Shown here in pieces: positions 1 through 8,816 of a stretch of DNA of 38,894 bases (position 1 is its first letter; each line of letters starts with the position of its first letter). Made by a program: the position numbers and the translations under genes. The stretch lies in NCBI GenBank assembly GCA_040326155.1, contig JBEQLE010000041.1:1-38894 (forward strand), in the 5' to 3' direction. Origin of the DNA: Leptospirales bacterium (GTDB lineage Bacteria; Spirochaetota; Leptospiria; Turneriellales; JAOUFE01). Under the pieces are notes generated by a model. The model was given only the letters and a program-made list of their open reading frames with translations, was not told the origin of the DNA and did not search any database.

Positions 1-134
1 AAACCCAAAACCGTCAGTTAAGTTTCATACCGCCTTGATTGCGCAAGTGAGTATCGTTGAGGAGCCCGGTGCGATAGTTTCGCACGCCGGGATCTGTGCG
101 GGGGGCGTCGGGTAACCGATGTCCCTACCGTGAC
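1..134 (+). mobile_element. 3' end of a group II intron (domains V and VI); the rest, including the RT ORF, lies upstream of the window
   Basis: DV GAGCCCGGTGCG-atagttt-CGCACGCCGGGATC (62-94) has the AGC catalytic triad and AC bulge. The DVI hairpin GGGGGCGTCGG-GTAA-CCGATGTCCCTACC has a bulged A, and the element ends in ...CGTGAC. An open frame (..EEPGAIVSHAGICAGGVG*) runs through DV and may be the IEP tail. Confidence 0.9.
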
Positions 135-209
135 TGTGCAAAAAACATTATATTTATCTGCAATGTATTCTTTCTGCATAGTCTTTTTTCAAGGTCCAAA
201 AGATAAGTA

Positions 210-238
210 TTGACAATATAATACGTGGATTATATTTA
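210..238 (+). promoter_or_regulatory. Putative sigma70 promoter of the ATPase cassette
   Basis: Perfect TTGACA at 210-215 followed by AT-rich TATATT/TATTTA at 231-238, about 60 bp before the ATG; spacing is not ideal. Confidence 0.45.
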
Positions 239-297
239 GTTTTAAAATTAATGCTATATTATTCAATAAAATATTGATATTGTTTTAAGGATTAAAC

Positions 298-1872
298 ATG
301 AACTCTGATCATAATGAATTAGTAAATATTCTTACCCAAGCTGAGCCTCTAGGTCCAATTGCTCATGAAAGAATAATCAAAAGTGCAGTTGAAAAACTTA
401 TCTATGATGATATCCCCCTTTTTTCAGATGCATATAGTAAACCGCATATGTTATTTTTAGGCCGAAAAGGGTCAGGCAAATCTGCACTTCTTGGGGCTAT
501 TCGGCGCAACTCGCGGAAAAAAGGTCGTCAAACCGTAATGTCAAAGGACGATGAACCAACAAAGGGTAGAAACTATGTAATAGCTGTCTACTCTTGGGAG
601 CACTTTCACCAAATGGTGCGAAATGTAAAGCGTCTAACTATTGCTGATGGGGAAATTGATGAACTAATACCGGTAGAATATTTTGTAAAACTTTGGTATG
701 AAACTTTATGGGATGAGATTATTCAATATTTCTATAATTTTCATGCTTTTGAAGATTGTCGGAAAGTTCTTCAGCCTGTTGAACAATATATAAATGTGGA
801 TGGTATTTTTGAGGGTAGCTCCGAAAAGAGAGCGAATGACTTATTCGAAAAAGCTCGAAATGCCGTGCTTGAATTTCTTGAGATACAGAATTCAAAATTG
901 TATTTTTTATTTGATTCTATGGAAAATTATCCTGTTCGTAACACAACCTTTGTTACAATAATCGCTGGTTTATTCCAAGGTTTATCCAAAATAAATGATG
1001 ATTCAATGCGTATCATTGCATCGTTTTGCTTGCCTGAGGAGGTTGAATCATTTATAACGAACAACTCCGCGAATCTAATGAAAGATTTATCCTCTTCCTC
1101 AAGGATTCGTTGGAAACCGGTTGACTTAATCCGTATTGTTGCACATCGATTACGTGTTTCTGCTTCATATTATGACAAAGCACTTTATCATCAAATCAAG
1201 TTGTTAGATTTTTCAAAGCGTGATGATTTGCACAATGTTTTCCAGTTGGTTCTACCTGAAGTGTTAAAAAATTCTCAGGGTACATCAGAAGATCCAATTG
1301 CCTATATAATCAGGCATACGCAATTGCTTCCTAGGCACATTTTAGCTATTTTCAACTCTGCTCTTAGCTATCACTATAAAATGACAAACACATTCACAGA
1401 TGTAACTGAAGATGCCATAAAGCAAGGTGTTCAAAATACTCAAAAATTAATAGCTCAGCAAATATTGGACCCATACGAAAAATTTTATCCAAAATTGCTA
1501 TTACAATGCAACAAAATACTTCCTGACCTTGATCCCATTAATAGCTATAATGACCTTAAACGAATTAAAAGGAGGTTTAACCGTGTCATTGAAGATGATA
1601 TCACCTCTGTATGGGAGACTTTATTTGAAATGGGTGTTATTGGGCGGTCAATGAATAATATTTCAACTAACCATGATAGTGAAATTAAAAAGCAACGTTA
1701 TTGCTATGGCCAATTCCACTATAATATTGAAGGATCTTTTGGGCTGGCCACTGACGGTGAATTTTGCTTCCACCCAGTTTTCTCGCGTTATTTTGGCATG
1801 AGCAGACGTAACGGTGATAAAAGAGTTGTATATCCAGCCAATATTGACTTGGGGAAAATTTATGAAGATTAA
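298..1872 (+). CDS. P-loop ATPase, Sll1717/FunZ-like
   Basis: 524 aa; Walker A GRKGSGKS, Walker B LYFLFDSME, RHTQLLPRHIL motif, winged-helix-like LFEMGVIG near the C-terminus; AAGGA RBS; low GC. Confidence 0.8.
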   Translation: MNSDHNELVNILTQAEPLGPIAHERIIKSAVEKLIYDDIPLFSDAYSKPHMLFLGRKGSGKSALLGAIRRNSRKKGRQTVMSKDDEPTKGRNYVIAVYSWEHFHQMVRNVKRLTIADGEIDELIPVEYFVKLWYETLWDEIIQYFYNFHAFEDCRKVLQPVEQYINVDGIFEGSSEKRANDLFEKARNAVLEFLEIQNSKLYFLFDSMENYPVRNTTFVTIIAGLFQGLSKINDDSMRIIASFCLPEEVESFITNNSANLMKDLSSSSRIRWKPVDLIRIVAHRLRVSASYYDKALYHQIKLLDFSKRDDLHNVFQLVLPEVLKNSQGTSEDPIAYIIRHTQLLPRHILAIFNSALSYHYKMTNTFTDVTEDAIKQGVQNTQKLIAQQILDPYEKFYPKLLLQCNKILPDLDPINSYNDLKRIKRRFNRVIEDDITSVWETLFEMGVIGRSMNNISTNHDSEIKKQRYCYGQFHYNIEGSFGLATDGEFCFHPVFSRYFGMSRRNGDKRVVYPANIDLGKIYED

Positions 1873-2293
1873 TAAAAATGTTCATATCAAATTTTCTCTC
1901 CCAATTATTACGCTAATCGCTATTGTCATTGGGATATATGCTTCAAGCATTACAGGTGATCCACATTGGTTAAACCGTATGGGCGCTTTAATCGCAAGTA
2001 TAGCAGCATTAGCAATTTTATTGCAAATAGCAGTTGAAATCAATTTAGAAGAAAAGCGCAGTAAAATTGATTCTAAAGAATTGAAAGAAAACCAAAAAAT
2101 ATCTGTGAGTCCGGTAGATGAATTACAAGTACGCTTGGAAATTAAACGTTTTGAAATTCAAAGACGTAAGCTAACAAAAGAGAGGCTTCTCATTGCATCT
2201 TATGTAACTTTCACTGCTATGCTGGGTGAACTACTACATGGATTTGGCGACCTATTAATGTGTTCTCTTTTCCATATCTGTTCCAATCATTAA
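1862..2293 (+). CDS. Small membrane protein (about 3 TM segments with a charged coiled linker), coupled to the ATPase
   Basis: ATG at 1862 overlaps the ATPase 3' end; hydrophobic segments FSLPIITLIAIVIGIYA, MGALIASIAALAILLQIAV and LLIASYVTFTAMLGELL. Confidence 0.75.
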   Translation: MKINKNVHIKFSLPIITLIAIVIGIYASSITGDPHWLNRMGALIASIAALAILLQIAVEINLEEKRSKIDSKELKENQKISVSPVDELQVRLEIKRFEIQRRKLTKERLLIASYVTFTAMLGELLHGFGDLLMCSLFHICSNH

Positions 2294-2363
2294 AGTAGCA
2301 ACAGAGTACCCCATAAATACCGATCAATACAAATGGATCCTTCCTACTTTTAATGTTTTCAGC

Positions 2364-2432
2364 ACATAACAAATTTTGATCTGCTCAGGCGCGTGCGCGT
2401 CTTCGGGTTTCGCATCTTATTTTTCGTTAAAA
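2364..2432 (+). repeat. attC-like recombination site (degenerate)
   Basis: Inverse core ACATAAC (2364-2370) to core GTTAAAA (2426-2432), 69 bp, with a GC-rich palindromic centre; lies just after a gene stop. Confidence 0.55.
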
Positions 2433-2452
2433 TGATACTTACATTTAAAAAG

Positions 2453-2604
2453 ACATAACAGCAATTGTTTTTTCGCTTGCGCTCAACCACATTTTGGGGC
2501 TACTTTCGCTTAACCGCTTTGCTCGCACCAAACTTGAGCTTTGTTTTGCGCTCGTCTGGCGGGTCGAGTCACCCCGAAACGTCAGATAACTCGCCACGTG
2601 ATAC
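2453..2604 (+). repeat. Long attC-like / Leptospira-type cassette repeat (degenerate)
   Basis: ACATAACAGCAATT ... AACGTCAGATAACTCGCCACGTGATAC with many CGCT motifs; resembles, from memory, long Leptospira attC-type repeats. The core appears mutated (GTG for GTT). Confidence 0.55.
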
Positions 2605-3940: not shown

Positions 3941-4138
3941 ATTACAAACTTGATTTCAGGTACCTATTTTCAAGGAGAAATCGCGATATCTTTTTAAAAC
4001 CTGCGTCCAGGACGTCAGAGTTTACTATAGTTTTCCCAACCTTACTTTCATATGATCAATTGAATGATGGTTCGCTTGCATGGGTTGCATCAATTCAATA
4101 CGAATCTCCAGAAGGTTTTATATCATTTAAATCAACAT

Positions 4139-4250
4139 TTCCTTCAGATTCCGCCTCGCGACGGACACCCTTGTGCTTCGCTAACACTTCACCTCCATCA
4201 GGTTGTGTAAGGGACTTCCACCCTCAAGTACTCGGCCATGCCCGGCTGAC
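4139..4250 (-). mobile_element. Truncated 5' end (domain I) of a group IIC-type intron
   Basis: Minus strand reads GTCAGCCGGGCATGG...GAGGGTGGAAGTCCCT...GTTAGCGAAGCACAAGGGTGTCCGTCGCGAGGCGGAATCTGAAGGAA, matching the conserved IIC 5' region. GUGYG start is degenerate and no RT follows. Confidence 0.8.
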
Positions 4251-4254
4251 CGCC

Positions 4255-4332
4255 GGGAGGGTTGTTCATTTTCTTTTGCCGTCAAAAGAAAACGAACCAA
4301 AAGAAAAGCGCCAACCCGACACGTCCCTCCGT
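4255..4332. repeat. REP-like hairpin element
   Basis: GTTCaTTTTCTTTTG-ccgt-CAAAAGAAAAcGAAC stem, with outer GGGAGGGTTG...CAACCC/CCCTCC pairing. Confidence 0.55.
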
Positions 4333-4852
4333 GGCCGTGAGGGTTGGATCACTCGCCCTCGATGGCTCGGTCTACATGGACTTCATTTTACAATATAGGT
4401 TGTTCCAAATTTTGAACCTTTGAGCTCGCTTAACATACAAACTCAAGCCTACCTCCAAATTAATACAGCTGGTGAAACATGAAATTTTTCTGAAAGTTGC
4501 CAATTCCGCTTCGAGTAAAGATTGCGACCTGCGGAAAAGGTTATTCGAGCGATCATCTCCTTACAGTAGATGCGGCCGTATTTCGGGTCTAGCTTTCGAA
4601 ACATTGGATGCGGAATAGATGGTAAGATGCACCTGAATGTGCAACCAACAACCCGATCCAAAGAATCGTTAAATATACATGAAAATAATTGAAAATTGTT
4701 GCATTGCCTGGTGTTTGTTCGTTATATTATAATAAGGCAAGAACCATGCAAAAAATGCACAATATTTACACAATAATTGCACATTTTACTTGACTTATGC
4801 CCGATAAGTATTTAATTAGGAATATAAAAAAAGAACGATAAGGAAGATGCAT

Positions 4853-5080
4853 ATGAGCGAAGAAAAGAAAGCTCGCCTAAATATTAGTGTGAGCGAAAAA
4901 ACATTAAACAGGCTAAAAAAATCAACTGGTATTGTTAAGAATCAAGAATTGATGGAGCAAGCTATTTTGCTCCTTGATTGGGCTGTTAAAGAAAGAAAAG
5001 AAAAACATATTGTCGGCTCGCTAGATGAAAAAAATCAAAAATACAAAGAAGTAGTGATGCCTGCGTTGAGTCATGGCTAA
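4853..5080 (+). CDS. Ribbon-helix-helix (CopG-like) protein
   Basis: RLNISVS beta-ribbon followed by two helices (TLNRLKK; NQELMEQAILLLDWAV); AAGGA RBS. Confidence 0.65.
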   Translation: MSEEKKARLNISVSEKTLNRLKKSTGIVKNQELMEQAILLLDWAVKERKEKHIVGSLDEKNQKYKEVVMPALSHG

Positions 5081-5339
5081 GCAAATAGAGATAAAAGAAC
5101 ATGATCTAAAAGAAAAAAAACAAGATCATGTTCTTGGTCTTCAGAAGGTAATAACATATTCCACAATTGTATTATTTGCTGCATCAATGACTGCTACATT
5201 TGTTATAATTTTTGGCATTGCATTGTGGGAATTTAAACTTCCAAAATCATTTTTAAACTGGATGGGCGGAGCTACTATAGGTCAGATCGGTGGCTTGATG
5301 GCGATAGTTTATAAGGGCGTCTTTAGATCAACACCCTAA
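5073..5339 (+). CDS. Small two-TM membrane protein
   Basis: Overlaps the RHH stop by 8 nt; two hydrophobic segments, the second containing GATIGQIGG. Confidence 0.7.
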   Translation: MAKQIEIKEHDLKEKKQDHVLGLQKVITYSTIVLFAASMTATFVIIFGIALWEFKLPKSFLNWMGGATIGQIGGLMAIVYKGVFRSTP

Positions 5340-5751: not shown

Positions 5752-7626
5752 ATGGAGCCTCATATGGATATGGATAGTAGACCTTTAATTGTACAGTCGG
5801 ATAAAACTCTTTTACTGGAGGTTGATAACCCTAATTTTGAAGAGGCAAGAGTTCTTATTGCCCGTTTTGCGGAACTTGAGAAGTCACCAGAGTATCTGCA
5901 TACTTACAGAATAACTCCGCTCTCGCTATGGAACGCTGCAGCCAGCAAACTTAACGCAGAGAAAATTATCGATACGCTTTATCAATATTCTAAATACCCC
6001 GTCCCACAAAATGTTAATGGCGAAATTACACGGCAAATTGGCCGGTATGGGAAACTTAAACTCCAGCGCGACGAGCAGGGTGAACTTATTTTGCACTCCA
6101 GCGAAGAAAATTTTATTAAAGAGATTAATCGCAGTAAAAAAGTGCAACCTTATATTGAAGGACTCAAAGACAAAAATAACCTCTTCGTAAAAAAAGAGTA
6201 CCGAGGGCATATTAAACAAGCTCTTATTCGACTCGGGTTTCCCGTTGAAGATTTAGCCGGTTACGACAGAGGAAACGACTATGCTTTTGATCTACTAGAA
6301 AAATGTCACTCCGGGAAAGATTTTGAAATTCGAGACTATCAGGAACAGGCGATTACAGCCTTTTATGCGGGAGGCTCTCTCGAAGGCGGTTCCGGTGTTG
6401 TTGTGTTGCCCTGTGGGGCCGGTAAAACCATCGTCGGTATTGGCGCCATGCAAAAAGTTGCTGCCCAGACCCTTATTTTGGTAACAAACACTCTTTCTAT
6501 ACGCCAATGGCGAGATGAGCTTATGGATAAAACCAATGTACCTTTAGAGGATATTGGCGAATACTCCGGCGATAAAAAAGAGATTAAACCCATAACCATT
6601 GCTACTTACAATATTTTAACCCACCGCAAGAAAAAAGGCGGAGAGTTTACTCACTTTCATCTGTTTTCCTCAAATAACTGGGGTTTAATATTATACGATG
6701 AGGTCCACTTGTTGCCTGCCCCTGTTTTTCGTATGACAAGCGAGCTTCAAGCGAAACGCCGTCTTGGCCTTACGGCAACTCTGGTTCGGGAAGATGGACT
6801 AGAAGAAGATGTATTTTCTTTAATTGGTCCTAAGAAAATCGATGTTCCCTGGAAAGAGCTCGAAAAGAAATCATGGATTGCCCAGGCGCAATGTGTTGAA
6901 GTTCGAGTTCCTATGCGGTCGCTTATGCGGGGTATGTATTCTGTAGCCGATGATAGAGAAAAGTTTCGTTTTTCATCGGAAAACCCTGAGAAAACACATG
7001 TAGTCGGAACTCTTTTAAACCACCACAAGAAGGATCAAGTTTTAGTTATTGGACAATATTTAAACCAGTTACAAAAAATCTCTGATAAATTCGGCCTACC
7101 GCTGATTACGGGGAAAACCCCTTTGAACGAACGCGCGACCCTTTACCAGGCATTTCGAAAGAAAGAGATAAAAGCGCTCGTTGTATCGAAGGTTGCGAAC
7201 TTTTCTATTGACCTTCCTGATGCAAATATTGCAATTCAGCTTAGCGGTACATTTGGAAGTCGCCAGGAAGAGGCCCAACGTTTAGGGCGAATTCTTCGAC
7301 CCAAAAATGATGGAAACCAGGCTATTTTTTACTCTGTTGTAACCAATGAATCTTCCGAAGAACGATTCAGCCACAACCGACAGCTTTTTCTAACCGAACA
7401 AGGGTATGAATACTTTATTTACGCGTATAAAGATTTTAAAGCTCACTACGGTTCTTATGTAAAAATATTGAAAGAAAGTAAAGAAAACGATAAAGAGACT
7501 GGCAAAGCTACTGAGAAAATTACTGAGAAAGTAACTGGCAACGAAACTACGAAAGAAATAGATAAAACTACTGACAAGGTAACAGACAGTAAAATACCAG
7601 AGAAAATACCCGCTGGTAAGGTCTAA
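5752..7626 (+). CDS. DNA repair helicase XPB (Ssl2/Rad25 family)
   Basis: N-terminal PLIVQSDKTLLLEV/ELEKSPE domain, LPCGAGKT, DEVH, LGLTAT, QRLGRILRPK; low-complexity TEK-repeat tail. Confidence 0.95.
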   Translation: MEPHMDMDSRPLIVQSDKTLLLEVDNPNFEEARVLIARFAELEKSPEYLHTYRITPLSLWNAAASKLNAEKIIDTLYQYSKYPVPQNVNGEITRQIGRYGKLKLQRDEQGELILHSSEENFIKEINRSKKVQPYIEGLKDKNNLFVKKEYRGHIKQALIRLGFPVEDLAGYDRGNDYAFDLLEKCHSGKDFEIRDYQEQAITAFYAGGSLEGGSGVVVLPCGAGKTIVGIGAMQKVAAQTLILVTNTLSIRQWRDELMDKTNVPLEDIGEYSGDKKEIKPITIATYNILTHRKKKGGEFTHFHLFSSNNWGLILYDEVHLLPAPVFRMTSELQAKRRLGLTATLVREDGLEEDVFSLIGPKKIDVPWKELEKKSWIAQAQCVEVRVPMRSLMRGMYSVADDREKFRFSSENPEKTHVVGTLLNHHKKDQVLVIGQYLNQLQKISDKFGLPLITGKTPLNERATLYQAFRKKEIKALVVSKVANFSIDLPDANIAIQLSGTFGSRQEEAQRLGRILRPKNDGNQAIFYSVVTNESSEERFSHNRQLFLTEQGYEYFIYAYKDFKAHYGSYVKILKESKENDKETGKATEKITEKVTGNETTKEIDKTTDKVTDSKIPEKIPAGKV

Positions 7627-7634
7627 GCGCGTTA

Positions 7635-8816
7635 ATGGAACTTCCCCGTATTTTCGTTTACGTTGTAAGTTCCATTGGTTCTGTTATTTTTGCTGTTTTT
7701 GCTTTCCCGTTTTCAACACACAATGTTTCGAAGTTAACGATTCCATTTATTGTAAACTCAGATAACGTTTTTGAAAAAGCGCCTTTGGTTGAAACATGGC
7801 CTTCCGTAACTTTTCACAAACGAATTCAAACTGGAAAGAATACCAGCTTTGAAATAAGGCAAATTCCTGAAAACGGAACTTCGGTACATGCTTTAAAAAT
7901 ACCAAAAGAGGGCGACCCCTCTTTAAAAAATGGATACCTGACATATTCCAACCAACCTGAATATTATATCTATTACCCACGCCTTGGAAGCGAAATTATA
8001 TATTTTGATACTGCCGGTGAAAAACTCTGGGAAAAAACCAGTCACCATTATATGGAAATTTTTCCGGATGGAAAATATATTCTCGGACTTGCCGGCGACA
8101 GTTCTCGCGCTTTTATTTTTGACCCCGACCTGAACGAAATTGCAAATGTGGAAGGGATGATTATGCTGGGACGCCGTTTCATGCATGATCCTTCTGAAAA
8201 ATTTGACCTTTGCCTTGGGTTTTTAAACGGTGAAATTGTTTTTATTGATGTTGAATCTGGTAAAAAACGCCGCCTGCAAGTTGCCGAAAATTTAACTTCT
8301 CTGGCTTGTAATTCCAGCCCTCTGCGCGTCTTCTACCAGTCCGGTACAAAAACAGGGGAGGGGGAACGCCTTACTCTGGTTACCGGCCTTGCCCCGGTTT
8401 TTCACGATGAAAGTAACGATACAAGTGACAACACAAGTGACGAAGAACAGACGCATGAAACTCTTTTTCAAATTAACCTCGGCAGGTATTACTCCTCGTC
8501 GTTACCCATGCAATGGCACGATAACTATGGAGTTATTTTAACACCTGAGAAAAATGATATGCAGGCTCTGGTTTTTGACCGGCAAGGCGTTCTTCTAGAC
8601 CAGATTGCGCTTCCCATGACGGGCAATAATACGGATGACTGGCGCTCGATTAAACTGAAAAACGGAATTGTTTTCTGGAGCTCTGAAACTGTTCTTGTTT
8701 TTGACAAACACTTGATCTACCGGGCTCACTCTGAAATTAAAAATGCAAAAGGTTATAACAACCATTTCTTTCTCGATACCTACAGCGGAATTGTCGCTTT
8801 TCGTCTTTCAAAATAA
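7635..8816 (+). CDS. Hypothetical membrane-anchored beta-rich (possibly propeller) protein
   Basis: 393-aa ORF 8 nt after XPB, with an N-terminal TM segment. Confidence 0.7.
   Translation: MELPRIFVYVVSSIGSVIFAVFAFPFSTHNVSKLTIPFIVNSDNVFEKAPLVETWPSVTFHKRIQTGKNTSFEIRQIPENGTSVHALKIPKEGDPSLKNGYLTYSNQPEYYIYYPRLGSEIIYFDTAGEKLWEKTSHHYMEIFPDGKYILGLAGDSSRAFIFDPDLNEIANVEGMIMLGRRFMHDPSEKFDLCLGFLNGEIVFIDVESGKKRRLQVAENLTSLACNSSPLRVFYQSGTKTGEGERLTLVTGLAPVFHDESNDTSDNTSDEEQTHETLFQINLGRYYSSSLPMQWHDNYGVILTPEKNDMQALVFDRQGVLLDQIALPMTGNNTDDWRSIKLKNGIVFWSSETVLVFDKHLIYRAHSEIKNAKGYNNHFFLDTYSGIVAFRLSK

Follow-up and report, generated by a model that had tools for sequence, protein, structure and literature searches.

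The window (the whole stretch of DNA analysed, 38,894 nt of a Leptospirales contig read on its forward strand) opens inside a group II intron and passes from there, through an AT-rich leader, into two overlapping genes in the same orientation as the intron, and then into a long attC-like element (Table 1). The genes encode a P-loop ATPase and a small membrane protein. A sequence-only reading of the locus had placed a possible internal promoter in the leader, but a sigma-70-type scan of the + strand between 135 and 297 passed none, and the TTGACA hexamer, perfect as it is, stands alone with a well-spaced −10 element absent, so that this proposal is not upheld.

Table 1. Coordinates of the features found at the start of the window.
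Feature	Position	Strand	Evidence or remark
Group II intron, 3′ end; contig starts inside it	1..134	+	domains V/VI at 60-134
Cassette 5′ end, left arm of extended R-box stem	135..150	+	pairs with 2351-2366, 14/16
AT-rich leader	135..297	+	TTGACA at 210-215; AAGGA ribosome-binding site 9 nt before ATG; promoter not established
Sll1717-family P-loop ATPase, 524 aa	298..1872	+	NF047389; ORC/Cdc6- and STAND-like NBD, helical, winged-helix architecture
3-TM membrane protein, 143 aa	1862..2293	+	alignment; overlaps ATPase stop by 11 nt
Right arm of extended R-box stem	2351..2366	+	immediately 5′ of inverse core
attC-like element	2364..2604	+	family membership by nhmmer, alignment and ends; long structured middle; 3′ arm degenerate
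R″ of the element, ACATAAC	2364..2370	+	alignment
L″ of the element, AATTTT-G-ATCTG	2372..2383	+	alignment
L′ remnant in 3′ arm, CAGATAACTCG	2583..2593	+	alignment
R′-like core in 3′ arm, GTGATAC	2598..2604	+	alignment

The ATPase and its membrane partner

The product of the longer gene matches model NF047389 with 123.8 bits over residues 32–498 (cut-off 75), and the same model is matched by all 32 of the 32 aligned relatives, in agreement with the earlier description of a Sll1717-like P-loop ATPase. The Walker A motif (GRKGSGKS, residues 55–62) and the Walker B aspartate (D206) are both present, and G55–K61 and D206 are invariant in the alignment, as are the RHTQLLPR segment (339–346) and residues C490, H492 and P493. 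The best PDB matches of the AF2 model (pLDDT 85.3) are Cdc6/Orc1 (2qby_A; Foldseek E 7.5e-6, probability 1.00), the archaeal AAA+ protein SSO1545, RdrA and BrxC. For the C-terminal 160 aa, weak VIA Z scores of 4.7–5.4 are obtained to the winged-helix regions of NB-ARC/apoptosome proteins, and a Foldseek search restricted to this domain was empty at E ≤ 0.001. The predicted structure is consistent with the layout of STAND and ORC/Cdc6-like AAA+ proteins, in which a Walker A/B NBD leads into a helical lid and then a winged helix, the C-terminal match being a weak one. A literature search on Sll1717 found no paper.

The overlapping gene had been read as encoding a protein of ∼3 TM segments, and three hydrophobic helices are indeed found, the second and third separated by a long charged one; the motifs DPHWLNR and GELLHGFGD are conserved. 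No family for this protein was found in Pfam, NCBIfam or PADLOC, and an Atlas search returned unnamed clusters only. The two-gene linkage holds in homologues without exception, the membrane partner lying directly downstream of the ATPase at 9/9 genome loci with at least 33% identity and at 21/21 metagenome loci with at least 30% identity (30/30 in total), and the pair is patchily spread across phyla, in Beta-, Alpha- and Gammaproteobacteria and in Holophagales. As cargo, the ATPase and the 3-TM protein form a conserved pair with translational coupling.

Complex prediction for the two proteins gave an ipSAE of 0.58 versus 0.00 for the best control, with at least 98% of the contacts agreeing between runs and a partner pLDDT of at least 76. 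The ipSAE mark is reached by 116/157 solved complexes and by 2/215 mismatched pairs, but the range from the mark up to 0.60, where the present value lies, contains only 18 of the 157 solved complexes and both of the mismatches. The support that this gives to an association of the ATPase with its membrane partner is weak.

attC-like elements and the limits of the cassette

The 16 nt that follow the intron (TGTGCAAAAAACATTA) are the reverse complement of 2351–2366 at 14/16 positions, the two mismatches being adjacent, and TAAC (2367–2370) lies directly 3′ of the right arm. The inverted repeat of the sequence-only reading is therefore confirmed, and support is found for its assignment of 2367–2370 to an attC-like site, as the end bearing the inverse core, and for the pairing of this end with the start of the unit. 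The outer 9 nt of the arms (AAAACATTA / TAATGTTTT) match at 9/9, and the first ∼7 nt of each arm are family consensus (TTCGCA|TAAC ... GTTA|TGCGAAA). Searched across the 38.9-kb window with up to two mismatches allowed, the 16-mer at 135–150 has one other match, that on the minus strand at 2351–2366; whole-window shuffles gave a mean of 0.10 such matches, and two matches were reached in 1/100. A genome-wide fuzzy search (3 mismatches) revealed that the 16-mer is not itself a repeat and returned many unrelated near-matches. The proposal that the unit spans 135–2370 was not borne out, because the TAAC opens an attC-like element of ∼240 nt and the intron sits exactly after the preceding GTTA; the cassette accordingly extends from 135 to ∼2598–2604. 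No other match to the attC-like family was found by nhmmer between 135 and 2362.

The element belongs to a family with 91 nhmmer matches on 51 of the 171 contigs of the assembly. Same-orientation arrays with a spacing of 1–3.5 kb are present on contigs C16, C106, C83, C7, C14, C140, C161 and C41, and many elements are singletons inside long contigs; among related genomes the repeat is carried by 3/30. On the eight array contigs the ORFs are of mixed orientation with respect to the elements, roughly half and half, and those of the window cassette are co-oriented with their element. The conserved ends of the family read ..TTCGCATAAC-A-AATTTT-(G/A/C)-ATCTG.. and ..CAGAT-AAAATT-GAAAC-GTTATGCGAAA, and the consensus cores, GCATAAC and GTTATGC, are each one position off RYYYAAC and GTTRRRY. 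In the L box, AATTTT-(G/A/C)-ATCTG pairs with CAGAT-AAAATT leaving an extra unpaired base, the R–L spacer being 1 nt on one side versus 5 nt on the other, and compensatory changes are seen on C142 (GAGATT/AATCTC) and C67 (GATTTT/AAAATC). IS200/IS605-type and Xer/dif-module explanations were also considered, and in this connection it was noted that each element pairs its own two arms. Fold z values of −2 to −7 on both strands are found in 12/18 full copies. The full copies are 191–314 nt long (n = 18) and that of the window ∼240 nt, whereas classical attC sites measure about 57–141 nt.

The window copy retains an ACATAAC core on its left, but its right core is degenerate (GTGA for GTTA), its own 3′ arm does not show the L-box pairing with bulged base and unpaired spacer that characterizes the family, and its fold is no better than shuffles (z about 0). 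As its own recombination site looks decayed, this copy of the cassette is probably no longer mobile.

Complementarity of the first bases of a cassette to its own inverse core, as observed here, is a sign of crossover in the core. Genome-wide, the 16-nt flank following GTTA in an element was compared with the 16-nt flank leading up to TAAC in the next one. A match of at least 10/16 is observed for 6/11 adjacent element pairs (14, 13, 12, 12, 12 and 10; the window's own pair is among the 11) versus 55/2149 non-adjacent pairs (mean 5.07, sd 2.05), and in the other 5/11 adjacent pairs it is absent. The right arm in the window is matched equally well, at 14/16, by a non-adjacent flank on contig C104, and given this flank the match in the window may in part be subfamily consensus.

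No integron integrase was found in the genome (assembly 94.7% complete in 171 contigs, so that a gene in an unassembled part may have been missed), where the best match to TIGR02249 reaches 102.7 bits against a cut-off of 265 and all matches look like Xer-type recombinases and are without model positions 188–236, nor in 30 relatives at E ≤ 1e-40, the latter being a weak search whose positive control matched nowhere. Since no such integrase was found, the term ‘integron-type’ in the sequence-only reading holds in form only; for the same reason, and because ORFs lie in both orientations and the sites exceed classical attC in length, the unit is here called integron-like (CALIN-type). A 353-aa recombinase on contig C12 was considered as the integrase and rejected, its relatives occurring in 30/31 genomes with or without the repeat and thus giving no phyletic signal.

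At the left boundary, the intron scores 33.9 bits with RF00029 (E 5e-4) and so falls short of the gathering score, 40; Rfam at gathering thresholds reports nothing in the window, and at E ≤ 1 intron pieces only. Four or five further copies in the genome (contigs C81, C29, C58 and C89) lose similarity at the same base, and a 5′ junction is found on C98 (...GAAACGTTA|GTGCGCC). The junctions read GTTA|GTGCG on the 5′ side and ...GTGAC|TGTGC, GGCGAAA or TGCGAAA on the 3′ side; insertion is exactly after the GTTA of the preceding site, 3 nt past the expected crossover point. This GTTA|K site differs from the bottom-strand TTGT/T insertion opposite to the genes that typifies IIC-attC introns, the identity of the bottom strand here being uncertain. 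Genes for RT/maturase are present in the genome (TIGR04416).

Defence context and competing explanations

Against PADLOC-DB v2 the ATPase gave a chance-level 14.7 bits only and the membrane protein no match. DS-41 (‘AAA2’), a single gene shown to be defensive in E. coli (DefensePredictor, PMC13092281), was compared through its NCBIfam model only (NF053860), which the ATPase matches with 22.9 bits over residues 331–388 only. Within the ATPase family, 24/32 members match this model colinearly and weakly at the Walker A and RHTQLLPR regions (best E 2.4e-10, family best 40 bits); other models matched are PDC-M28C (12/32) and mad8 (7/32), and one member has an N-terminal TIR domain. The earlier statement that the pair is assignable to no named system hence stands with respect to PADLOC, but the pair is not wholly without a named relative, because its family is weakly and colinearly related to single-gene DS-41.

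That cassette arrays carry defence genes finds support in the sister cassettes of this genome, which hold defence-type genes and in whose arrays 11/51 ORFs match PADLOC models at E ≤ 1e-5, including OLD/AriA/GajA-like ATPases, a CARF + PRTase set around an ORC-CDC6-like gene, an HNH effector and PDC-M48B. Within the window no recognised defence gene adjoins the cassette. Among 89 ORFs around 9 homologue loci the contexts are mixed and only in part defence-like: some loci adjoin transposases, TA genes, HsdM or resolvase, whereas several lie among housekeeping genes such as those for isocitrate dehydrogenase, glucanotransferase and ABC transporters. No attC-like flanks were seen at 13 homologous pairs in other organisms, one of which abuts tRNA-like sequence.

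On balance, we lean towards reading 135 to ∼2600 as a single cassette that holds two genes and forms the chromosome-proximal end of an integron-like array with no integrase nearby (CALIN-type), with a cargo of putative abortive-infection type. This cassette is closed on its right by the ∼240-nt member of the genome-wide attC-like family (TAAC...GTTA) and opens where the GTTA of the preceding site is expected, the intron having inserted exactly after that GTTA; its first 16 nt pair with the 16 nt that lead up to its own TAAC, which is what circularisation of cassettes through a crossover in the GTTA core would predict. Its two genes, for a minimal ORC/Cdc6- and STAND-like switch ATPase and an unnamed 3-TM protein, are a plausible candidate for a phage-defence module. 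If the pair acts by abortive infection, the ATPase may be held off in a nucleotide-bound state, with the invariant winged-helix His in the role of the STAND ‘MHD’ histidine, until a phage cue causes it to switch or oligomerise and to act on, or be gated by, the membrane partner, which would then damage membrane integrity.

The cassette frame could be right and the pair still not be anti-phage, serving instead as an addiction/stabilisation module, as a membrane-linked regulatory switch or in mobile-element maintenance. The ATPase without a PADLOC match, a DS-41 score far under its cut-off, the housekeeping genes among the homologue neighbours and the finding of no longer fused forms (918–2620 aa) with effector domains, which is weak evidence, would all fit such a role, as would the fact that DS-41 acts on its own, with no TM partner. 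We nevertheless consider it somewhat unlikely, given that the pair is patchy across phyla yet strictly conserved in its partner, that one relative carries a TIR fusion, that the fold class is common to BrxC, RdrA and STAND immune ATPases, and that the pair sits among cassettes rich in defence-type genes.

Alternatively, the ∼250-nt repeats may be MITE-like or terminator-like hairpins, a structured repeat specific to this lineage that group II introns have as a homing target, the gene pair merely lying between copies with no cassette excision or integration. Consistent with this are the failure to find IntI in the genome or in the 30 relatives, the dispersal over 51 contigs with many singletons, the ORFs on both strands relative to the elements, the lengths well above classical attC, and the second, unrelated intron that begins 22 nt from the other end of the C142 element; class C introns need only a hairpin and a short IBS1 (PMC7923331). 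The flank complementarity, however, spans neighbouring elements (6/11 versus 55/2149), which is expected from core crossover and not from a self-contained hairpin or MITE, and the cores that fit RYYYAAC/GTTRRRY but for one position, the bulged base in the L box and the same-orientation arrays of accessory and defence-type genes likewise speak against a simple repeat, so that we regard this explanation as unlikely.

The preferred cassette reading can also be extended, to an IntI-less integron-like system with sites of ∼250 nt, TAAC/GTTA cores and ∼20-bp cassette-specific stems that would be run by an Xer-like recombinase or by the 353-aa tyrosine recombinase on C12, would store self-expressed defence modules in either orientation and would attract sense group II introns homing to GTTA, with the Sll1717 ATPase and 3-TM protein forming a new abortive-infection system of two components around a minimal STAND switch devoid of a sensor; taken as a whole, this is improbable. 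Finally, that the inverted repeat owes its 14/16 agreement to chance in AT-rich DNA, as the shuffle that reached two matches and the unrelated genome-wide near-matches might suggest, is very hard to credit, as both arms abut functional boundaries, one arm the intron/GTTA site and the other the TAAC core, and other cassettes follow the same flank rule, which already contradicts chance.

Comparison with known systems

Within the spirochaete phylum, the Treponema integron is the only familiar one. If the sites described here are active, they would represent integron-style cassette storage outside the IntI paradigm, with very long sites and bidirectional cargo, and would bear on cassette formation and on the role therein that has been proposed for group II introns. 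The cargo adds a strictly conserved ATPase–membrane pair to the little-studied Sll1717 family, and at 2.0 kb this pair is small enough for direct testing.

DS-41, a distant relative of the Sll1717 family that comes from E. coli and was recently shown to be protective there, is likewise a stand-alone P-loop ATPase of ∼450–500 aa without recognisable effector, and both families reach archaea. It differs in that it was validated as one gene, whereas the query clade always has the 3-TM partner, and at 22.9 bits versus a cut-off of 370 our ATPase is not a member. STAND and ORC/Cdc6-type defence ATPases (Avs/NLR-like proteins, BrxC of BREX and RdrA of RADAR) share with the predicted model the core of NBD, helical and winged-helix domains and the conserved winged-helix His, but the present ATPase is without their sensor repeats, fused effector or partner genes, and the likeness is low (TMq 0.24–0.36, Z ≤ 5.4).

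The array resembles integron cassettes and CALINs (attC clusters without integrase; Cury et al. 2016, PMC4889954) in its unique gene-bearing units between imperfect palindromes, in its RYYYAAC- and GTTRRRY-like cores, in the additional unpaired base of its L box, in the complementarity of the cassette start to the inverse core, and in its same-orientation arrays of accessory and defence cargo with the integrase not nearby. It differs from them in its sites of ∼190–310 nt with a conserved modular middle and an R-box stem of up to ∼20 bp; moreover, about half of the ORFs are antisense to the sites, many elements are scattered and IntI was not found in the assembly.

Group IIC-attC introns of the S.ma.I2 lineage are similarly present in several copies at an attC-type hairpin core, 5′-deleted derivatives included, but those described (PMC3001079, PMC7923331) insert on the bottom strand at R″ (TTGT/T), in the orientation opposite to that of the cassette genes, whereas the present intron follows GTTA at the R′ end and is co-oriented with the genes of this cassette.

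attC-like elements and the limits of the proposed cassette

Within the window, a single other site matches the 16-mer at 135-150 with at most two mismatches, namely 2351-2366 on the minus strand (0.10 matches per window in shuffled windows), and TAAC (2367-2370) directly follows this arm, confirming the inverted repeat described in the sequence-only reading. BLAST and nhmmer searches with 2340-2620 against the genome (4.26 Mb in 171 contigs, 39.6% G+C; contig C107 begins with the 38,894 bases of the window) identify 2358-2610 as one copy of a large repeat family, for which a profile built from 16 full copies gives 91 matches on 51 of the 171 contigs, some being two pieces of one element. From the alignment and end lists, the element begins ..TTCGCA-TAAC-A-AATTTT-(G/A/C or nothing)-ATCTG-CTCAGG.., continues through a long, modular, hairpin-rich middle, and ends ..CGT-CAGAT-AAAATT-GAAAC-GTTA-TGCGAAA. 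The arms pair as TAAC/GTTA, AATTTT/AAAATT and ATCTG/CAGAT, leaving one 5'-arm base unpaired and a 1-by-5 internal loop, and compensatory L-box changes are present in two of the copies (C142, GAGATT/AATCTC; C67, GATTTT/AAAATC). The order R'', L'', variable middle, L', R' is the layout of integron attC sites, although the cores differ from the consensus RYYYAAC/GTTRRRY at one position each and the family is longer (191-314 nt) than classical attC, whose length range lies well below this. Folded as single-stranded DNA, 12 of 18 full copies reach z values between -2 and -7 for each strand against dinucleotide shuffles, and the complementary strand folds slightly better than the + strand in 15 of 18; this, together with the unpaired base in the + 5' arm, weakly marks + as the top strand of the element. 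The window copy has an intact 5' arm, whereas its 3' arm reads CAGAT-AACTCG-CCAC-GTGA against the family CAGAT-AAAATT-GAAAC-GTTA, and it folds no better than shuffles (z 0.26 and 0.48). Beyond this last element the genes are ordinary chromosomal ones, for a TPR protein and an XPB-type helicase.

With crossover at the GTTA core, the sequence following one GTTA would be expected to complement that preceding the next TAAC. Comparing 16 nt on each side for every element end that could be placed, we found 14, 13, 12, 12, 12, 10, 5, 5, 5, 5 and 3 matches in the adjacent same-strand pairs; thus at least 10 of 16 are complementary in 6 of 11 adjacent pairs, including that of the window, as compared with 55 of 2149 non-adjacent pairs (mean 5.07, sd 2.05), with 5 of the 11 failing the test and some flank extensions being common to subfamilies. 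Such complementarity across unique DNA would be expected from core crossover and not from a self-contained hairpin repeat. As a further caveat to this comparison, from C104:26032 onward the 16 nt past an element core match the reverse complement of window 2351-2366 at 14 of 16 and the DNA beyond differs, which may reflect past cassette exchange or a shared stem-extension subfamily.

A whole-genome search with TIGR02249 for an integron integrase returned only recombinases far below cut-off, all of which are devoid of model segment 188-236, where the IntI extra domain lies, and which resemble XerC/XerD and a 353-aa relative by sequence. The 353-aa recombinase was discarded as a candidate integrase, its homologues occurring in 30 of 31 genomes irrespective of the repeat. 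A stricter search of 30 relatives gave no integrase either, and proves little as control genomes were also unmatched; the repeat family is present in only 3 of the 30. Many elements are singletons within long contigs, and ORFs are found in either orientation with respect to the sites. The integron-type form proposed earlier is largely right, in that the attC-like architecture and flank complementarity point to a CALIN-type cassette (one of a cluster of attC sites without an integrase), probably fossilised; the missing integrase, mixed ORF strands, singletons and degenerate window site make 'integron-like' the appropriate term rather than a demonstrated integron cassette, and the sites are over-long. 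A single putative cassette does start at 135, but its right boundary lies at ~2598-2604 rather than 2370. Its description as promoter-bearing is unproven: a consensus scan calls no + strand promoter in the leader, and the 11 calls in 1-2800 compare with 10.8 expected from shuffles.

Features of the window and of related loci in the same genome
Feature	Location	Strand	Remarks
Group II intron, 3' end	1-134	+	domains V and VI at 60-134, RF00029
Leader	163 nt	+	AT-rich; perfect TTGACA 210-215; AAGGA nine bases 5' of ATG
ATPase gene	298-1872	+	
Membrane-protein gene	1862-2293	+	overlaps ATPase stop by 11 nt
attC-like element	2364-2604		
G+C-richer patch	4060-4700		weak group-II-D1D4-3 match on minus strand, 4113-4165, E 0.0075
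Repeat, ~100 nt	4238-4347		about 20 genome places, often contig ends
Two overlapping small ORFs	4847-5339		77 aa and 88 aa; AT-rich region 5'
XPB/ERCC3-type helicase and 393-aa protein	5752-8816		helicase 624 aa (PF16203, PF13625); second protein 8 nt on
Second group II intron	C142:17888-19832		intact RT/maturase (TIGR04416, 424 bits)
Intron derivative, ~280 nt	C29:4460-4919		without ORF; directly after attC-like site
Three-gene unit	C83:738-4492 (L101:738-4489)	-	antisense to attC-like sites
OLD/AriA/GajA-like ATPases (AAA_15/AAA_21)	C106:7202-8965; C14:7547-9151; C98:40110-42050; C104:26191-27834		adjoin attC-like elements

Further into the window, the G+C-richer patch probably represents remains of a different intron or repeat family. 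The two small ORFs match no family, the 88-aa product has two hydrophobic helices, and the two may form a further small two-gene module. PADLOC PbeA models also match the helicase (E 1e-25), and the 393-aa protein following it has no family match.

A sense-oriented group II intron at the start of the proposed cassette

The RF00029 match at the window start, at 33.9 bits (E 5e-4), falls short of the gathering score (40), and intron copies on C81, C29, C58 and C89 lose similarity at the same base. On C98 an intact site ends ...GAAACGTTA with the intron start GTGCGCC immediately adjoining, and at the 3' junctions the intron end ...CCTACCGTGAC is followed by TGTGC.., GGCGAAA.. or TGCGAAA.., which are the sequences that normally follow GTTA of the element. 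These junctions place the window intron three bases inside the cassette (G/TTA-intron-TGTGC...), and the site preceding the cassette is, by this mapping, on another contig. According to PMC3001079 and PMC7923331, the known attC-targeting class C introns insert at TTGT/T of R'' in the bottom strand and are oriented against the cassette genes, whereas the window intron sits at GTTA/K in the same orientation as both genes, which would in principle allow splicing of read-through transcripts. The unrelated intron on C142 starts GTGCGAC, 22 nt past the TAAC end of an attC-like element and on the opposite strand, a position indicating that two intron lineages use attC-like elements from opposite sides. 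The C29 derivative of the window's intron type consists of the 5' part minus its first bases, fused to domains V/VI.

The ATPase and its membrane partner

With 123.8 bits in NCBIfam NF047389 ('P-loop ATPase, Sll1717 family'; cut-off 75), the ATPase bears out its earlier assignment as Sll1717-like. Invariant in 32 relatives are Walker A G55, R56, G58, G60 and K61, D206, R284, the RHTQLLPR block (339-346) and C490/H492/P493/F495. The AlphaFold2 model (pLDDT 85.3, pTM 0.85) is nearest to archaeal/eukaryotic Cdc6/Orc1 (2qby_A, E 7.5e-6) and archaeal AAA+ SSO1545, with a weaker predicted resemblance to the defence ATPases RdrA and BrxC. The last 160 residues, modelled alone (pLDDT 85.5), have no Foldseek match at E <= 0.001; an exhaustive aligner matches them to the helical and winged-helix part of STAND proteins (wheat G10 resistosome, NRC1, Dark, CED-4, Apaf-1) at Z 4.7-5.4, a range common by chance, and the recurring theme alone was used, not individual Z. 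The models thus suggest a minimal ORC/STAND-type switch without sensor repeats or effector domain. Longer fused forms were not found, and one 668-aa relative has an N-terminal TIR domain.

The partner combines three hydrophobic helices with a long charged one and carries the conserved motifs DPHWLNR and GELLHGFGD; it has no Pfam, NCBIfam or PADLOC family, and its Atlas matches are unnamed clusters only. In a profile search, the gene directly 3' of the ATPase is a homologue in each of the 9 genome loci at >=33% identity (Roseateles, Pelomonas, Alphaproteobacteria, Holophagales, Lysobacteraceae) and in each of the 21 metagenome loci at >=30%, two of them cut by a contig end, in agreement with the overlapping ~3TM gene and two-gene linkage proposed from the window; in an ATPase clade at ~25% identity (mostly Chloroflexota) the downstream gene is not conserved. 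Complex prediction gives ipSAE 0.58 against 0.00 for the best control; of 157 solved complexes 116 reach the mark, 18 of them at 0.60 or under, and of 215 mismatches 2 do so, both at 0.60 or under. The runs agree in >=98% of contacts (partner pLDDT >=76). The models hint, tentatively, at a physical complex.

The pair as a candidate defence module

The taxonomic distribution of the pair is patchy. The expectation that homologues sit in defence islands holds in part, some neighbours being transposases, DUF433/DUF5615 and ParE toxin-antitoxin genes, HsdM or a resolvase, whereas several loci are flanked by housekeeping genes. None of 13 loci examined in other organisms has attC-like flanks, hence the pair is not generally a cassette. 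The sister cassettes of this genome are rich in defence-type genes: at E <= 1e-5, PADLOC models match 11 of 51 ORFs, among them four ATPases of OLD/AriA/GajA-like type and a set of three genes (CARF, ORC-CDC6-like, PRTase). Integron cassettes encoding phage defence are reported in bioRxiv 10.1101/2024.07.02.601719. We consider the pair a plausible candidate defence module, with the chances about evenly balanced.

In such a module the ATPase would rest nucleotide-locked, with the invariant winged-helix His in the STAND 'MHD' role, until a phage-derived cue releases it for nucleotide exchange and oligomerisation. As effector, the membrane partner, bound either at the conserved EPLGP region near the N terminus or at the face of the winged helix, would then make membrane integrity collapse, giving abortive infection. 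It is also conceivable that the roles are reversed, the membrane protein sensing and the ATPase executing.

The three-gene unit on C83 encodes a CARF-like protein (PADLOC CARF6 models, E 3e-28), a 642-aa ORC-CDC6-like ATPase (PF24389, E 4.5e-87) and a PRTase-CE protein (PF24390; PADLOC PRTase_III-A, E 2e-19), and looks like a complete multi-gene defence-type system between two attC-like sites. The arrays also encode eCIS-core-domain and RHS-repeat proteins.

As anticipated, neither the window ATPase nor its partner matches a named system in PADLOC. The DS-41 model NF053860 is matched by 24 of the 32 family members (best E 2.4e-10), colinearly at the Walker A and RHTQLLPR regions, with the window ATPase scoring 22.9 bits against a cut-off of 370; candidate PDC-M28C is matched by 12 of 32 and mad8 by 7 of 32. 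DS-41 is the single-gene system 'AAA2', which the DefensePredictor study (PMC13092281) scored as defensive in E. coli. The uncharacterised ATPase-membrane pair belongs to the Sll1717 family, and the integron-like array stands out by the great length of its sites and by an intron in sense orientation.
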